NCBI GenBank assembly: GCA_021399345.1
Contig: JAAFKI010000121.1
Location: forward strand, 1-25,002
DNA from: Candidatus Heimdallarchaeota archaeon
Lineage (GTDB): Archaea > Asgardarchaeota > Heimdallarchaeia > Heimdallarchaeales > Heimdallarchaeaceae
Reading direction: 5' to 3'
DNA length: 25,002 nucleotides
Part shown: positions 990-10,179 of the stretch, in pieces
Position numbering within the stretch: the stretch's first letter is position 1
Layout: each line of letters begins with the position of its first letter
Notes under the pieces: generated by a model
The model's database searches: none
What the model was told of the DNA's origin: nothing
What the model saw: the letters and a program-made list of their open reading frames with translations, nothing else
Made by a program: the position numbers and the translations under genes

Positions 990-2126
990 TTGTCCGACGA
1001 ACTCCACACCAAACCTCTGGTCTTAGATAACGGTACTGGCTTCACTAAAAATGGTTTCGCTGGTGAGGATCAACCTAGAAGTGTTTTTCCAACAATAATC
1101 GGATACCCTAAACATCCTGTTGTAATGCCCGATGTTGAAGGTTGGATAAGAGAGCACTACATTGGCGAAGAAGCAATGAACATGCGAGGTATACTCAAAC
1201 TTGTTTATCCAGTTGAACATGGACAAGTTCAAGATTGGGGTGCTATGGAAAACATATGGCATTATACTTTCTACAATGACTTGAGAGTTAATCCGAATGA
1301 ACATCCGATAATGCTTACAGAGCCTCCTTTAAATGACAACAGAAACAAGGAAAAAATGGCTGAGCTGATGTTTGAAATGTTCAATGTACCTGCTATGTAT
1401 ATTTCTATGCAAGCAATACTCTCACTCTATGCATCAGGAAGAACTACTGGGTTAGTAGTTGATGCAGGAGATGGTGTGATACATATTGTACCAGTGTATG
1501 AAGGTTTTGCAATCTCTCATGCAATTCACAGATGTGATATTGGAGGAAGAGATATCACCGATTATCTAAGAACTCTCTTGAAACAACGAGGATATTCTCT
1601 GACAACAAGTGCTGAAAGAGAAATAGTACGAGATATTAAGGAAAGACTATGTTATGTGGCACTGAATCCAGAAAAGGAGCTTCGATTAACAGAAAAAATA
1701 TCCAATATGGAGAAAGAATATACTATGCCAGATGGAGAAACTCTTACTTTAGGAGCAGAGCGTTTTATGGCACCAGAGCTTCTTTTTAGTCCAGGCGTAA
1801 TTGGTTCAGAAGAAGAACCACTTGATGAGTTGATCTATAGAATGATTCAGAGATGTGATGTAGACTTAAGACGGGATCTATTTTCGAATATTGTTTTATC
1901 TGGTGGAACCACGATGTTTCCTGGATTAAAGGAAAGACTCCATAAAGAATTAACAGATCTTGTACCTGATACAACAGAAGTAAAAATAATAGCTCCTCCT
2001 GAAAGAAGATATTCTGTTTGGATAGGTGGCAGTATTCTAAGTTCTCTAAAAACATTTAACAAACTATGGGTAACAAGGAAGGAATATAAAGAAACAGGAC
2101 CTACAGCTGTTTATCGCTGTATCTGA
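990..2126 (+). CDS. Asgard actin (lokiactin-related, eukaryotic actin family)
   Basis: 378 aa, collinear with eukaryotic actin: LVLDNGTG phosphate-1, YPVEHG, TEPPLN, MQAILSLYASGRTTG, VDAGDG phosphate-2, EREIVRDIKE, IVLSGGTTMFPG, PPERRYSVWIGGSIL. Confidence 0.97.
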   Translation: MSDELHTKPLVLDNGTGFTKNGFAGEDQPRSVFPTIIGYPKHPVVMPDVEGWIREHYIGEEAMNMRGILKLVYPVEHGQVQDWGAMENIWHYTFYNDLRVNPNEHPIMLTEPPLNDNRNKEKMAELMFEMFNVPAMYISMQAILSLYASGRTTGLVVDAGDGVIHIVPVYEGFAISHAIHRCDIGGRDITDYLRTLLKQRGYSLTTSAEREIVRDIKERLCYVALNPEKELRLTEKISNMEKEYTMPDGETLTLGAERFMAPELLFSPGVIGSEEEPLDELIYRMIQRCDVDLRRDLFSNIVLSGGTTMFPGLKERLHKELTDLVPDTTEVKIIAPPERRYSVWIGGSILSSLKTFNKLWVTRKEYKETGPTAVYRCI

Positions 2127-4088: not shown

Positions 4089-4210
4089 TTGAATCAATCA
4101 AAATATAGATTGGGTGCAAATAAACTTTTGTGAAAATTCTTTTTTCTCATTTTTTTCAAAAAAACGATATACTAAAAATTTATTACTCTCTATGCGTCAA
4201 AAAACACACT

Positions 4211-6136
4211 ATGACATCAGTAGAAAGATTGTGCGAAAAACATACTGTTGAAAATGCTTTAGAACACGGGAAAGCAGCTATAGGTCCTGTAATGGGTAGA
4301 GTCTTTAAAGCTAATCCCGAATTGAGAAAGAATGCAGACATCATCAGAGAAATATTGGGAAATAAGATTGATTATATTAACTCATTAAAGCCTGAAGAAA
4401 TACAACAACTCGCACAAGATAAGTATCCAGAACTTCTGCAAAAGAAGGAAGAAATAGTTCAGGAAGAAGCTGATTTCATACGAGAGATTATTGAAGAACA
4501 TAACCGAACCGGAAGATTTGGAGGAAAGGTCCATACTCGATTCCCTCCAGAACCCAATGGATGGCTTCATGTTGGTCATGCATATTCCATTAATCGAAAC
4601 TATAACTTTGCAGTAGAATATGGAGGTAAATTCAACCTAAGATTTGATGATACAAATCCTCTAACAGAAGAAGAAGAATTTGTTGATTCAATAATTAATG
4701 ATGTTCTTTGGTTAGGAGTTGACTATGAAGATAGACTTCTCTTTGCATCAGATTACTTTGACCAGCTCTATGAATATGCAGTTCAACTAGTTAAGAAAGG
4801 GTTAGCATATGTGGATGATTCAAGTGTTGAAGAAATACGAGAAATGAGAGGAACCATTACAGAACATGGTAAGGAAAGTCCATACAGAAACAGATCAATT
4901 GAAGAAAATCTAGATCTGTTTGAGAGAATGAAAGCTGGAGAATTTAAGGACGGGGAAAGAGTTCTTCGAGCAAAAATCGATATGGCTCATCCTAATATGT
5001 TAATGAGGGATCCGATAGTATACAGAATCCTTCATGCAAGTCATCATAATACTGGTGATAAGTGGTGCATTTATCCAATGTATGATTGGGCTCATGGTTT
5101 AGAGGATTCAATCGAAAGGATAACTCATTCAATCTGTACTCTGGAATTCGAAGTACATAGGTCACTTTATGATTGGTATATAGATCAATTAGACAATGAA
5201 GATGGTAATCCAATTCATCATTCTCAACAAATAGAATTTGCTAAAATGAATCTCTCCTACATGGTCCTTAGTAAAAGAAGACTGAGGATGCTTGTAGAGG
5301 AAGGTTATGTCAACGGATGGGATGATCCTCGAATGCTCACAATAGCCGGAATGAGAAGAAGAGGATATACACCAGAAGCAATACGAAATTTCTCTTTAGC
5401 TATTAACTTCACTAAAAGAGAAAAATTGATTGATATGTCTATCTTTGAACACTACATACGAGAAGATTTGGATAAAAGATGCCCAAGAGTTATGAGTGTA
5501 ATCAATCCTGTCAAACTAGTTTTAACAAACTATCCAGAAGATCAAGAAGAGGAGTTTACAGTTCCAAATCACCCATCTGATAAAGAAATGGGGACTAGAA
5601 AGGTTAAATTTAGTAAAAACCTCTTCATTGAGCAAGAAGATTTCATGGAAACTCCTCCTGAAGACTATTATCGTCTTTCACCAGGAAAAGAAGTTAGATT
5701 GAAATATGCCTATTTCGTAAAGTGTGAAAGTGTGGTCAAAGATGAAAGAACTGGGAAGATAACTGAAATTCATTGTACATATGATCCTACAACTAAAGGA
5801 GGAGAATCTCCAGATGGAAGAAAAGTACAAGGAACTATTCACTGGATATCCGCTAACAATACACTAGAAGTTGAAGTAAGATTATATGATAGAATGTATA
5901 CTAAGGAGAATCCAATGGATACTGAAGAAGGAAAAGAGTTCAAAGATTATATCAATCCCGATTCTATAAATATAATGAAATCATATGTGGAACCATTCCT
6001 AAAGGATAATGAACCAGAATCAAGGTTCCAGTTTGAAAGAAATGGGTATTTTGTTATAGACTTAGTCGATTCAACAAAAGAAAAATTGGTCTTAAACAGA
6101 ATAATTACTTTGAGAGATTCATGGGCTAAAAAATAA
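4211..6136 (+). CDS. glnS: Glutaminyl-tRNA synthetase (bacterial-type core) with an archaeal GluRS-like N-terminal domain
   Basis: From residue ~88 the protein is collinear with E. coli GlnS as I recall it: FIREII, TRFPPEPNGWLHVGH (HIGH), RFDDTNP, WCIYPMYD, ITHSICTLEF (Cys as in GlnRS, not the Arg of GluRS), VLSKR (MSK), GWDDPR, beta-barrel anticodon domain KVQGTIHW, FQFERNGYF, and terminal LRDSW. ATG at 4211 (641 aa) is preferred over GTG at 4130. Confidence 0.95.
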   Translation: MTSVERLCEKHTVENALEHGKAAIGPVMGRVFKANPELRKNADIIREILGNKIDYINSLKPEEIQQLAQDKYPELLQKKEEIVQEEADFIREIIEEHNRTGRFGGKVHTRFPPEPNGWLHVGHAYSINRNYNFAVEYGGKFNLRFDDTNPLTEEEEFVDSIINDVLWLGVDYEDRLLFASDYFDQLYEYAVQLVKKGLAYVDDSSVEEIREMRGTITEHGKESPYRNRSIEENLDLFERMKAGEFKDGERVLRAKIDMAHPNMLMRDPIVYRILHASHHNTGDKWCIYPMYDWAHGLEDSIERITHSICTLEFEVHRSLYDWYIDQLDNEDGNPIHHSQQIEFAKMNLSYMVLSKRRLRMLVEEGYVNGWDDPRMLTIAGMRRRGYTPEAIRNFSLAINFTKREKLIDMSIFEHYIREDLDKRCPRVMSVINPVKLVLTNYPEDQEEEFTVPNHPSDKEMGTRKVKFSKNLFIEQEDFMETPPEDYYRLSPGKEVRLKYAYFVKCESVVKDERTGKITEIHCTYDPTTKGGESPDGRKVQGTIHWISANNTLEVEVRLYDRMYTKENPMDTEEGKEFKDYINPDSINIMKSYVEPFLKDNEPESRFQFERNGYFVIDLVDSTKEKLVLNRIITLRDSWAKK

Positions 6137-6206: not shown

Positions 6207-6314
6207 AGTCCCTTGGTGTAGCCTGGAAACATTCCAGACTTTGAATCTGGCGCCGGGAGTTCAAAAGGTATTCTCTTGCGAGGAGAGCCTGAATTTATCT
6301 CCCAGGGACTACCA
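6207..6314 (+). tRNA. tRNA-Gln(UUG) with a 32-nt intron at non-canonical position 58/59 (intron 6265-6296) and encoded CCA
   Basis: Acceptor AGTCCCT/AGGGACT + A73 + CCA. D arm GTGT/ACAT. Anticodon arm CCAGA-CT-TTG-AA-TCTGG (TTG at 6241-6243). T stem GGGAG/CTCCC. Removing 6265-6296 restores the TTCAAAT loop, and the junctions fold into a bulge-helix-bulge. Confidence 0.92.
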
Positions 6315-6943: not shown

Positions 6944-8665
6944 TTAATTATTCCTTCTCTTCATTTTAAAAGTTATATAACTTGGTACTAATGTTATTAA
7001 TCCAATCATGATAAAAAGAGATTGTATAGGAAGCTCAGGTATCACTGGCGGGAGTTCTACTATAACCCATTCTTCATTCGATGAACGATTCAAATACTCA
7101 TTAGAAGCAACAACAATATAGTAATAAATTCCAGGTGTTAAAAAGAGATCTTCATAAGTTGTTGAGCTTGTAAGAGTTGCTAGTGGAGTTAAACTAGCAA
7201 AGGAAACTATAGGTATTAGTGAACGATAAATATAATATTTCTCTGTATTCGATACTGCATTCCAATTTAGAGTGATATTACCTGTAGTACTAACACTAGG
7301 TGAAATATCATCTAATATGGGATAAGGTAATCTTAGTAGCTTTCTATAGAAAATATCTATATCGTCTCCAGAATTAGTATAATTGGTCCAATCATGCCAT
7401 ACAATATGAATATTTCCTTCATCACTCCAAGTAACATCTGGAAAAGCAGCTCCATCTGTGCTTACTGTGGATACTAGTTCAGTTGTATTCCAAGTTGAAT
7501 CTGTAGAATTCCAAAATTTATAAAAAATGTCCCAGTCAGAGTCAGTCACTAGATAGTTTGTATAATCATGCCACACTACGTGGATATTATCAACGTTATC
7601 AACAACAAGAGCTGGATTACTCGATGAATCACTGCTTTCAGAAGACACTACCTCTGTAGTGGCCCATGAGGAAGTTATAGCAGATTTCTGTCTGTGAAAA
7701 ATGTCTTGATCAGGACCTCCATAAATGTCTATTATATCCTTCCAAGCTATGTGAACATTACCTAAACTATCAACATCAATAGAAGGTGTGTCTGAATATG
7801 CATTTGAATATGTAGAAACCACTTCTGTAATGGTCCAAATTCTACTTGTTGCATTCCAGAATTTATAAAATATATCTGAATCTGATCCACAAAATGCATA
7901 ATTTGTATTATCTTTCCATGCAATATGCACATCACCCAAAGTGGTGACTACAAGGGTAGGTTCATTTGAAGCTAATGTACTCTCAGTGGATACTACTTCT
8001 GTGGAATTCCAACTCATACTTGTTGCATTCCAGAATTTATAGAATATATCTGCATCTGTACCTGAGCCTGCATAATTGGTCCAATCAACCCAAGCTGCAT
8101 GTACATTTCCATTATCATCAACAGCTAAAGACACATACGCTGAAACCGAGGTACTCTCAGTAGCTAGTACTTCTGTAGAACTCCAACTCATACTTGTTGC
8201 ATTCCAGGATTTATAAAAAATGTCATAATCTGGCATATCAAACCAAGCTACATGTACATTTCCGTTACCATCTACGGCAATAGAAGGTAGTTGACTATCA
8301 AATGTACTCTCAGTGGATACTACTTCTGTGGAATTCCAACTCTTACTTGTTGCATTCCAGAATTTATAGAATATATCGGTATCTATACCACAATTTGTAT
8401 AGTTGGTGTAGTCATACCAAGCTACATGTACATTACCATTTGAATCTACTGCAATAGAAGAGCGACCTGATAAGCCATTACTTTCTGTAGATATTACTTC
8501 TGTTGTTAACCACATAGTTTCAGTGTAGCTGCTTTCTGTGTTAATATTTTGCACTTTTGAAGATTCTATTGATGCTATCATATCTTTTGAAATCATTATA
8601 GTTACTATGAGAAATATTAGTAAAACAGGTAAGCCTATCTTTCTTATTTTCTTATTTAATTTCAC
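6944..8665 (-). CDS. Cell-surface glycoprotein: signal peptide, 7-repeat beta-propeller, FN3-like domain, C-terminal sorting motif and TM anchor
   Basis: Seven ~58-aa repeats (TEVVSTES..S..P.I.VD..GNVH.AW.D....DIFYK.WN.T..W). FN3-like segment LNW..V...YYIYRS...Y.D...G.YYY.VVA.N. Ends in IPELP + TM + KMKRR. Many NxS/T sequons. Probable start is GTG at 8665 (ORF track gives 8737). Confidence 0.8.
   Translation of the reverse strand: MKLNKKIRKIGLPVLLIFLIVTIMISKDMIASIESSKVQNINTESSYTETMWLTTEVISTESNGLSGRSSIAVDSNGNVHVAWYDYTNYTNCGIDTDIFYKFWNATSKSWNSTEVVSTESTFDSQLPSIAVDGNGNVHVAWFDMPDYDIFYKSWNATSMSWSSTEVLATESTSVSAYVSLAVDDNGNVHAAWVDWTNYAGSGTDADIFYKFWNATSMSWNSTEVVSTESTLASNEPTLVVTTLGDVHIAWKDNTNYAFCGSDSDIFYKFWNATSRIWTITEVVSTYSNAYSDTPSIDVDSLGNVHIAWKDIIDIYGGPDQDIFHRQKSAITSSWATTEVVSSESSDSSSNPALVVDNVDNIHVVWHDYTNYLVTDSDWDIFYKFWNSTDSTWNTTELVSTVSTDGAAFPDVTWSDEGNIHIVWHDWTNYTNSGDDIDIFYRKLLRLPYPILDDISPSVSTTGNITLNWNAVSNTEKYYIYRSLIPIVSFASLTPLATLTSSTTYEDLFLTPGIYYYIVVASNEYLNRSSNEEWVIVELPPVIPELPIQSLFIMIGLITLVPSYITFKMKRRNN
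7974..8377. repeat. Intragenic near-identical direct repeat (7974-8050 and 8301-8377)
   Basis: Two 77-bp copies differ at one base and lie 327 bp (two protein repeats) apart. A more diverged copy sits at about 8151-8220. Confidence 0.85.
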
Positions 8666-8760
8666 AATTTCACTTCCATTTATTTTAAAAAAATTGAAAC
8701 ATTGTACATAAGACAGAGAAATATTTAAGTGTTTCATAGTTTTCTAAATTTTGAAAAAAT

Positions 8761-10104: not shown

Positions 10105-10179
10105 AGCCCTGTGGTGTAGTGGCCAAGCATTGTAGGTTTTGGCTTGCAGACGGAAGTTCGAATCTTCCTAGGGCTACCA
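10105..10179 (+). tRNA. Degenerate tRNA-Gln(UUG)-like gene with a 6-nt anticodon loop and encoded CCA; possibly a pseudo-tRNA
   Basis: Acceptor AGCCCTG/TAGGGCT + ACCA. Typical archaeal Gln D arm TGGTGTAGTGGCCAAGCAT. T arm GGAAG-TTCGAAT-CTTCC. The anticodon stem GTAGG/CTTGC has two G-U pairs and closes the loop TTTTGG. Confidence 0.8.

Follow-up and report, generated by a model that had tools for sequence, protein, structure and literature searches.

Reviews hold that all archaea lack glutaminyl-tRNA synthetase (GlnRS), the reason given being that archaeal tRNA-Gln is orthogonal to the GlnRS of bacteria and of eukaryotes (PMC9499178, PMC8762117); the discriminator base of tRNA-Gln is G73 in bacteria and A73 in archaea (PMC9499178). 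In Deinococcus GlnRS, a YqeY domain has been shown experimentally to enhance affinity for tRNA-Gln, and to do so only in cis (PMC1865053). The N-terminus of archaeal glutamyl-tRNA synthetase (GluRS) has been called a YQEY domain as well; it has no assigned function and was disordered in the crystal (PMC2978374). GlnRS beside cox genes has been mentioned in passing for Hodarchaeales and Kariarchaeaceae (bioRxiv 10.1101/2024.07.04.601786), and we found no description of a chimeric N-terminal domain in the searchable literature, the coverage of which is incomplete. Here we analyse glnS on a stretch of 25,002 nucleotides from Candidatus Heimdallarchaeota archaeon (contig JAAFKI010000121.1 of assembly GCA_021399345.1, positions 1 to 25,002, forward strand), hereafter the window. 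The gene joins the N-terminal domain of an archaeal GluRS to a bacterial-type GlnRS. An old graft of this domain onto an imported enzyme is the best-supported history and one that, from the sequences compared below, we consider probable; glnS has the look of an imported enzyme that was adapted to its archaeal host.

The gene and its parts are:
4211..6136, plus strand: glnS, chimeric glutaminyl-tRNA synthetase, 641 aa plus stop (reading frame, Pfam/NCBIfam and structure alignments)
4211..4465, plus strand: N-terminal domain (N-domain), residues 1-85, a homologue of the 'YQEY' domain found N-terminally in archaeal GluRS, with four predicted helices and a fifth entering the linker
4466..4525, plus strand: acidic linker and DFIREII helix, residues 86-105, the usual start of bacterial GlnRS, aligning with D-Y-L-P-E-I-V of the host GluRS
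4526..5473, plus strand: class Ic catalytic domain, a Rossmann fold bearing the HVGH and LSKR motifs, residues 106-421 (PF00749, E 1.4e-99; 5BNZ alignment)
5480..6061, plus strand: two beta-barrel anticodon-binding domains, residues 424-525 and 542-617 (PF03950, E 4.8e-34; PF20974, E 8.3e-21)

From ATG 4211 the frame runs uninterrupted for 641 codons to the stop at 6134-6136. Residues 107-640 match the GlnRS equivalog model TIGR00440 along its entire profile (1-524 of 524) with 704.6 bits against a cut-off of 425.8 (E 9e-212), whereas the archaeal GluRS models stay under their cut-offs for the whole protein (TIGR00463, 375.9 against 401.75 bits; NF003169, 357.7 against 516); judged by these scores, the whole protein is a GlnRS and not a GluRS. 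Aligned to solved structures, residues 87-640 run nearly gapless along GlnRS of P. aeruginosa (5BNZ, 673 bits) and E. coli (657 bits), with human GlnRS at 417 bits. The 5BNZ alignment passes through RGTITEHGKESPY and the loops of the anticodon domains without large gaps, and the bacterial-type tRNA-contact insertions are present, namely the acceptor unpairing hairpin and the G36-recognition loop, features that archaeal GluRS lacks (PMC2978374). A gene encoding a working bacterial-type glutaminyl-tRNA synthetase would be the best explanation of these features. Orthologues in Heimdall metagenome-assembled genomes (MAGs) are of ~640 aa with 62-98% identity, and the closest homologues are labelled Heimdallarchaeota or Asgard. 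The NCBI name 'glutamine--tRNA ligase/YqeY domain fusion protein' is a misnomer for this enzyme because its match to NF011291 lacks the YqeY part: the match covers only positions 9-558 of the 769 in that profile, and the protein ends 24 residues past PF20974 without a C-terminal YqeY domain.

Residues 1-95, searched alone, matched only archaeal GluRS models in NCBIfam (NF003169, E 6.8e-15 over profile positions 4-87; TIGR00463, E 9e-8) and, among solved structures, residues 2-81 of M. thermautotrophicus GluRS 3AII (E 3.7e-8), the only solved archaeal GluRS. Against 1.84 billion representative proteins the N-domain returned 51 matches at E <= 1e-3; in the full-length ones (541-608 aa) the match is N-terminal, and those with names come from Nitrososphaerota and Thermoprotei MAGs, where they are archaeal GluRS. 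Furthermore, an alignment with 39 GluRS shows the N-domain to be collinear with the GluRS N-domains of all Heimdall families and of other archaea, the core positions K10, N15, A16, G20, A22, N57 and P73 being common to both enzymes. On these matches, its homology to archaeal GluRS lies far beyond chance. Four long proteins, P0126 (864 aa), P0129 (1177 aa), P0138 (4004 aa) and P0139 (1250 aa), are each matched in 3-7 stretches (E 4e-9 to 2e-5), probably through helical-repeat resemblance and not homology. Two of the four are named as repeat proteins, TPR/CHAT and DUF1542. An AlphaFold2 (AF2) model built from a 60-sequence alignment (mean predicted local distance difference test score, pLDDT, 89.5) has five helices, four forming a bundle over residues 1-72 and a long fifth (73-100) running into the core.

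The original prediction, made from the letters of the window, had proposed exactly this fusion of an archaeal GluRS N-domain to a bacterial-type GlnRS, and it agrees with what we find: residues 1-85 match GluRS and residues 88-641 match GlnRS. Of the two parts that it named, the first gave archaeal GluRS only, which disposes of its own objection that residues 1-87 might lack such homology, and the second aligns with bacterial GlnRS. The junction that it placed near nt 4470 falls where A87-D88-F89 of DFIREII begins, at nt 4469-4472, and the motif that it gave for archaeal GluRS, NA..H.GKA....V.G.V....PELR..A......VN.LS.EE, can be read in the GluRS alignment.

The distribution of the enzyme and of its N-domain is narrow. 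We surveyed 400 Asgard genomes at the TIGR00440 cut-off, 83 of them, in seven families, belonging to the class of the window and f1 being its own family. GlnRS exceeds the cut-off in 41 of the 400 and in three families only, f1 (20 of 30 genomes), f7 (10 of 12) and f5 (12 of 22); it was found in none of the remaining four families of the class and in none of the ~317 Asgard genomes outside it. The open frames in f1 and f7 are of 650-690 aa and include the N-domain, and those in f5 are of ~580 aa with a bacterial-like start and without it. Indeed, a hidden Markov model (HMM) of the N-domain recovers 19 loci, all from f1 or f7, and none among the f5 loci, the 79 bacterial genome loci or the 80 IMG/VR loci, so the possibility, raised as a counter-argument in the original prediction, that bacterial donors already carried the domain does not apply. 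The closest GlnRS from bacteria (Chloroflexota, Ignavibacteria, Acidobacteriota, Planctomycetota, Bacteroidota and others) consist of the body only, at 551-586 aa and 55-65% identity. Contamination as a source of the gene is ruled out by single-contig genomes (G015, G016, G064, G066), by synteny with tRNA-Gln genes and by a neighbouring Asgard actin gene.

These families also keep the indirect pathway to Gln-tRNA-Gln. In the host genome (3.27 Mb, 88.6% complete), contig 30 encodes an archaeal GluRS, the only other class Ic synthetase, and contig 163 an adjacent gatD-gatE pair, from which it follows that GlnRS coexists with the indirect pathway; across the class, GatE is present in 78 of the 83 genomes, all GlnRS-bearing families included. 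GatE itself is divergent in f1 (in the host, L003:1351-3288, minus strand), scoring 375-410 bits on TIGR00134 against 560-650 in GlnRS-less sister families, and its YqeY tail in the host scores 36.8 bits on PF02637 against 80-95 elsewhere. In f7, canonical and divergent GatE copies are both present. The divergence in f1 may be a sign that constraint on the indirect pathway has relaxed or changed. A loss of the YqeY tail from f1 GatE, suggested by 0 of 31 genomes at E <= 1e-10, was withdrawn, the 36.8 bits of the host tail marking it as divergent and not absent.

Three tRNA-Gln or tRNA-Gln-like genes follow glnS in the window:
6207..6313, plus strand: tRNA-Gln(UUG), 70 nt downstream of glnS, with A1-U72, A73, an encoded CCA and a ~32-nt T-loop insert (covariance model R1, 70.2 bits)
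10105..10179, plus strand: tRNA-Gln-like gene with A1-U72, A73, an encoded CCA and an abnormal anticodon arm, in which UUUUGG allows 6 bp with a 6-nt loop or 5 bp with an 8-nt loop
11761..11834, plus strand: tRNA-Gln(CUG) with A1-U72, G2-C71, G10 and G73, the bacterial-type discriminator

The T-loop insert, a non-canonical intron position, is why Aragorn and Rfam missed the UUG gene; its copies in G018, G026 and G034 are intronless and otherwise identical, and those in G017, G033 and G028 are ~105 nt long. In at least 12 genomes of the genus the CUG gene is found in synteny with glnS, N73 being G in some and A in others, and the linkage of glnS to tRNA-Gln genes is kept in all three GlnRS families. 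BLAST with tRNA-Gln DNA matched only the window's genus, and the class-wide survey was made by covariance model. Throughout the class tRNA-Gln has A1-U72, save one CUG copy in genus g3 with G1-U72. In f5, which lacks the N-domain, both glnS-adjacent isoacceptors carry G73; in f1 and f7, which have it, the UUG isoacceptor always carries A73, as does the CUG isoacceptor except for G73 in part of the window's genus. GlnRS-less families f2 and f3 have A73, and GlnRS-less f4 is mixed, with A73 in genera g9, g12 and g13 and G73 in g8, g10 and g11. A strict link between G73 and GlnRS was rejected on account of these last three genera. Both of their isoacceptors (L287, L288, L295-L300) have A1-U72, G2-C71, G3-C70 and G73, near the acceptor identity set of E. 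coli GlnRS, and GlnRS was not found in these seven f4 genomes, which are 63-86% complete. The discriminator pattern fits two alternative adaptations, an altered tRNA or a tRNA-binding domain added to the enzyme; enzyme and tRNA would then apparently have been adapted by two routes: two families would combine the N-domain with A73, and the third would combine G73 with an enzyme that lacks the domain.

Wherever its position could be seen, the odd tRNA-Gln-like gene is close to glnS, in the company of the tRNA-Gln genes. It also occurs at L243:2445-2519, L245:2461-2535, L022:1168-1242 and L305:130-203. Sister genomes of the genus have UUUAGG in the anticodon arm, and in a g3 genome Aragorn reads its anticodon as UUA, positions 1 and 72 forming an A-A mismatch. 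A pseudo-tRNA, a decoder of unusual type and a tRNA-like RNA with a regulatory role are all conceivable.

To place the body of the enzyme we built a careful tree (LG+C20 with posterior mean site frequencies, PMSF; 1000 ultrafast bootstraps), in which the bacterial set was extended by divergent bacterial GlnRS from prophage-flanking IMG/VR contigs, by giant-virus GlnRS and by L226, a sequence that has human GlnRS as its best PDB match and contains PF04558, an N-terminal region specific to eukaryotes. This tree sets a eukaryote-type clade that includes L226 (support 97/83) apart from a clade of bacterial-type and Heimdall sequences (95/95); within the latter, the Heimdall clade, f5+(f1,f7), is supported at 100/98 and sits several weakly supported nodes deep among bacteria, with a Bacteroidota-rich group as sister (92/93). 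On this topology, Heimdall GlnRS is not the sister of eukaryotic GlnRS. Of 200 bootstrap trees, 0 unite the bacteria in a single clade, a count to which giant-virus rows nested among bacteria also contribute, and the best tree in which bacteria are constrained to be one clade, (eukaryote-type, (Heimdall, bacteria)), is 28 log-likelihood (lnL) units worse under PMSF. Our reading is a single acquisition of GlnRS in an ancestor within Heimdallarchaeia, with import of the body from bacteria favoured by the nesting though not statistically proven; the incoming bacterial glnS of the original prediction is thus upheld as the favoured source and no further, the alternative of Heimdall as sister to all bacteria not being rejected. 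That f7 nests within f1 in the gene tree though it belongs to another order, together with the patchy distribution, points to further transfer among Heimdall lineages. Two trees were set aside. A narrow one, whose bacterial sequences were only the 80 with the greatest similarity to the query, put Heimdall at the base of bacteria, a placement reversed by broader sampling; a quick-search tree with Heimdall nested among bacteria proved suboptimal by constraint search, hence the careful search.

Short bacterial-type GlnRS of ~510-550 aa also occur on IMG/VR contigs of giant-virus size (L199, L201, L203, L217 and L222; 190-480 kb). They form a clade that nests beside Bacteroidota GlnRS and is distinct from the eukaryote-type enzyme of the giant-virus MAGs L230, L233 and L234.

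The N-domain has a history of its own. It is only 24-26% identical to the N-domain of the host's own GluRS, and its best identities, 37-42%, are to the 'type A' GluRS of f5 and to a few Nitrososphaerota and Thermoprotei GluRS; this divergence implies that the event is old and that the sample holds no recent donor. The original prediction had an incoming glnS recombine with a copy of the host gltX, of which the GluRS graft stands and the present host gltX as partner does not. In a tree of 78 columns the GlnRS N-domains group with those of f5 type-A GluRS (94/79, with starred inner nodes), which makes a Heimdall GluRS the probable donor. Within f5, genomes of genus g14 carry one or the other of two very different GluRS types (L152-L154 as opposed to L157-L158): compared with the host GluRS, type A scores E ~1e-116 to 1e-123 and type B ~1e-64 to 1e-74, and only the N-domain of type A groups with GlnRS. 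Since Heimdall GlnRS is monophyletic and the domain is missing from f5 and from bacteria, the most parsimonious history under either topology is a single gain on the f1/f7 stem. The join lies exactly at the pre-Rossmann helix that both enzymes share (DFIREII in GlnRS, DYLPEIV in GluRS), making recombination between paralogues the likely mechanism.

Put together, the sequence of events that we propose would begin with a bacterial-type GlnRS acquired once by a Heimdallarchaeia ancestor, most likely from a bacterial source. In the f1/f7 lineage the GlnRS N-terminus would then have been fused to the ~85-residue helical GluRS domain, by recombination between GlnRS and GluRS paralogues at the homologous helix, the donor being a Heimdall GluRS similar in kind to those that the third family, f5, has today. 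The resulting enzyme would charge the neighbouring tRNA-Gln by a direct route next to that of GluRS and GatDE, which is retained, and its N-domain may serve in cis as an added module for tRNA binding or affinity; in this way a G73-tuned bacterial-type enzyme could use archaeal A73 tRNA-Gln, the domain compensating for the non-bacterial identity of the acceptor end.

All of this presupposes that the N-domain is made. In a different account it lies outside the protein, translation begins downstream, and the upstream frame is a remnant, as the public 566-aa gene call P0010 for this contig would have it, beginning at residue 76; automated calls for several orthologues also begin downstream and lose part or all of the N-domain (NCBI entries of 559-618 aa). 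However, P0010 begins at a CTG codon, the gene has no ATG between residue 28, itself inside the N-domain, and the catalytic domain, and the majority of independent orthologue calls give ~640 aa. The Met start, M(T/N/K)S(V/I/L)E, is identical in 19 of the 19 N-domain-bearing loci, from two families; their frames stay open and aligned, mostly without a further upstream Met within the open frame. A promoter-like element precedes this Met:
4174..4185, plus strand: TATA-like A/T-rich element aaaaatttatta, core TTTATTA centred ~29 nt upstream of ATG 4211
Within the window's genus the block ACTAAA(A/G)ATTTATTA is kept 5' of the same Met in G018, G033, G040 and G019. The position of the TATA-like box fits a leaderless or very short-leader archaeal mRNA, its putative promoter role being read from position only. 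Pairwise ratios of nonsynonymous to synonymous substitution rates (dN/dS) are 0.06-0.26 for codons 1-85 and 0.04-0.12 for the body, and the N-domain is thus under purifying selection, somewhat weaker than that on the core. With Met and TATA-like box both conserved and dN/dS far below 1, a downstream start, which the original prediction had named as fatal to its proposal, is highly improbable and close to refuted; going by these marks, the N-domain is translated as part of the protein. As a practical consequence, many public gene calls cut it off.

Several observations weigh against the graft history or against the tRNA-binding role. On the side of history, the bacteria-constrained tree is not rejected under LG+F+G4 (35.9 lnL units worse; bootstrap proportion by resampled estimated log-likelihoods, bp-RELL, 0.16; approximately unbiased test, p-AU, 0.149), Heimdall sequences are basal in the narrowly sampled tree, and eukaryotic GlnRS is represented by one eukaryote-type sequence, L226, plus IMG/VR giant-virus sequences. 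The N-domain tree rests on 78 columns only, and N-domain identity saturates: GluRS pairs whose bodies are 30-50% identical reach only 30-33% in the N-domain, and GlnRS-GluRS pairs stand at 31.7%, so that at ~30-40%, as between distant GluRS, age and donor are not sharply defined. In a rival account GlnRS would have been born in the Heimdall/proto-eukaryote lineage by duplication of an N-domain-bearing archaeal GluRS, with f1 and f7 keeping the original architecture, f5 and bacteria (the latter with GlnRS from a Heimdall-like donor) losing the domain, and eukaryotes replacing it. This account draws on the unrejected (eukaryote-type, (Heimdall, bacteria)) topology and on the basal f1/f7 of the narrow tree; on the similar divergence from GluRS of N-domain and body (means of 31.7% and 31.2%); on the Heimdall lineage holding the nearest GluRS N-domain; on bacterial GlnRS beginning exactly where the domain would end; and on a weak structural match to residues 119-182 of human GlnRS 4YE6 (VIA, Z 5.8, in the noise range). 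Nevertheless, the best trees nest Heimdall GlnRS among bacteria, with the bootstrap count given above, and group it with bacteria and not with the eukaryote type. The domain-less f5 is sister to f1/f7, which would demand at least two or three independent losses in place of one gain. GlnRS is patchy, in three of the seven families of the class and none of the ~317 other Asgard genomes, with f7 inside f1 despite its other order, and hhalign gives no profile link between the N-domain and the N-terminal domain of the PF04558-bearing L226 (E 0.17). We therefore regard descent from an ancestral, N-domain-bearing GlnRS as quite unlikely; if true, it would place the origin of GlnRS in Asgard archaea and no longer in 'early eukaryotes'.

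As to function, retention of GatD, GatE and GluRS means that the main route may be other than the direct one, the N-domain is net acidic, and the A73/G73 correlation is effectively one phylogenetic contrast, with G73 found in GlnRS-less f4 genera as well. Pfam finds nothing in the first 105 residues and, for 60 family members, only noise, YqeY/GatB models (PF02637, PF09424) included; the models of the eukaryotic GlnRS N-terminal region (PF04558/PF04557) do not match the N-domain in 60 family members, and Foldseek finds no PDB match to its model at E <= 0.001. Comparison by hhalign with 20 Heimdall GatE tails is weak (14% probability, P 0.0019, 52 columns), pairing the G..G.(V/L)MG.(V/I)M motif with the C-terminal part of the tail. 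The VIA match to residues 97-148, in the C-terminal half, of B. subtilis YqeY 1NG6 (Z 5.2, root-mean-square deviation 1.9 A over 47 residues) has, like that to human GlnRS, a Z-score within the noise for small helical domains. Weak as they are, the hhalign and VIA results point to the same portion of YqeY and are consistent with a 'YqeY-like' label, which is plausible and unproven. The same graft might have supplied a regulator or a docking module, for GatDE, a synthetase complex, EF1A or the ribosome, in place of a tRNA binder, an account that we find rather doubtful. It would suit the acidic surplus, the presence of GatDE and GluRS alongside GlnRS in nearly all these genomes and the unusually divergent f1 GatE; core residues held in common with GluRS N-domains would fit a shared partner, and in archaeal GluRS the domain has no function assigned to it and was disordered (PMC2978374). 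Speaking against docking, the archaeal transamidosome paper is silent on the N-terminal domain. No partner is known, and the A73/G73 pattern points to tRNA. The N-terminal domains of yeast and human GlnRS act on tRNA. Indeed, the characterised helical domains appended to GlnRS all do so, Deinococcus YqeY among them (PMC1865053), and it is by this analogy only that a tRNA-affinity role for the Heimdall N-domain is suggested, not proven. Recognition of archaeal tRNA-Gln and docking to host partners, the functions offered in the original prediction, likewise stay conjectural, the discriminator-base correlation being the only finding that touches them.

Elsewhere in the window, a full-length Asgard actin homologue (990-2126, plus strand; PF00022, E 9.5e-131) lies 2 kb upstream of glnS. 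On the minus strand, 6944-8737 encodes a 597-aa protein of many near-identical ~45-residue repeats (D.DIFYKFWN.T...W..TEVVSTES), with a weak SBBP beta-propeller match and hydrophobic segments at its N- and C-terminus.

Heimdall genomes show that the GlnRS barrier has been crossed, apparently in two ways, by an N-domain with A73 tRNA-Gln and by G73 without a domain, and they give experiments direct access to the question of what allows a synthetase to pass from one domain of life to another. The graft would be a third, independent case of a GlnRS gaining a helical appendage, after Deinococcus and eukaryotes. Furthermore, with this lineage being the closest known relative of eukaryotes and its direct pathway coexisting with GatDE, the locus bears on the replacement of the indirect by the direct route in eukaryotes.

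Among known systems, bacterial GlnRS (E. coli GlnS, 1GTR/1QTQ/1O0B; 5BNZ; TIGR00440) resembles residues 87-640 end to end at ~55-65% identity, with the HIGH-type and MSK-type motifs, both beta-barrel anticodon domains and an unpairing hairpin that reads RGTITEHG in the Heimdall enzyme and RGTLTQPG in E. coli. It differs in lacking the 85-residue N-terminal domain in every sequence sampled and in its host, the Heimdall one being archaeal; the tRNA-Gln differs as well, with A1-U72 and mostly A73 beside Heimdall glnS as opposed to the U1-A72 and G73 of bacteria. Archaeal non-discriminating GluRS (M. thermautotrophicus 3AII) is collinear with residues 1-85, sharing the motif NA..H.GKA..G.VMG.V...PELR, the KYPE turn and the same next helix, but the body of the Heimdall enzyme is only ~31% identical to archaeal GluRS and falls below the cut-offs of the GluRS models. 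Eukaryotic GlnRS (human 4YE6, yeast 4H3S; PF04558/PF04557) likewise places a helical appendage N-terminal to the GlnRS core and belongs to a Heimdall-related lineage, yet its core is far more distant (417 bits as compared with 657 for E. coli), the tree separates the two at 95/95, and its domain has ~200 residues; the convergence on eukaryotic architecture foreseen in the original prediction accordingly extends only to the arrangement of parts, no sequence or profile link having been found. In Deinococcus radiodurans GlnRS-YqeY (2HZ7; NF011291), a bacterial-type GlnRS likewise gained a small helical domain from the older machinery of the indirect pathway. There, however, the appendage is C-terminal, spans 215 residues and is a clear PF02637/YqeY domain, whereas that of the Heimdall enzyme is N-terminal, spans 85 residues, appears to derive from GluRS and has no Pfam YqeY/GatB match.

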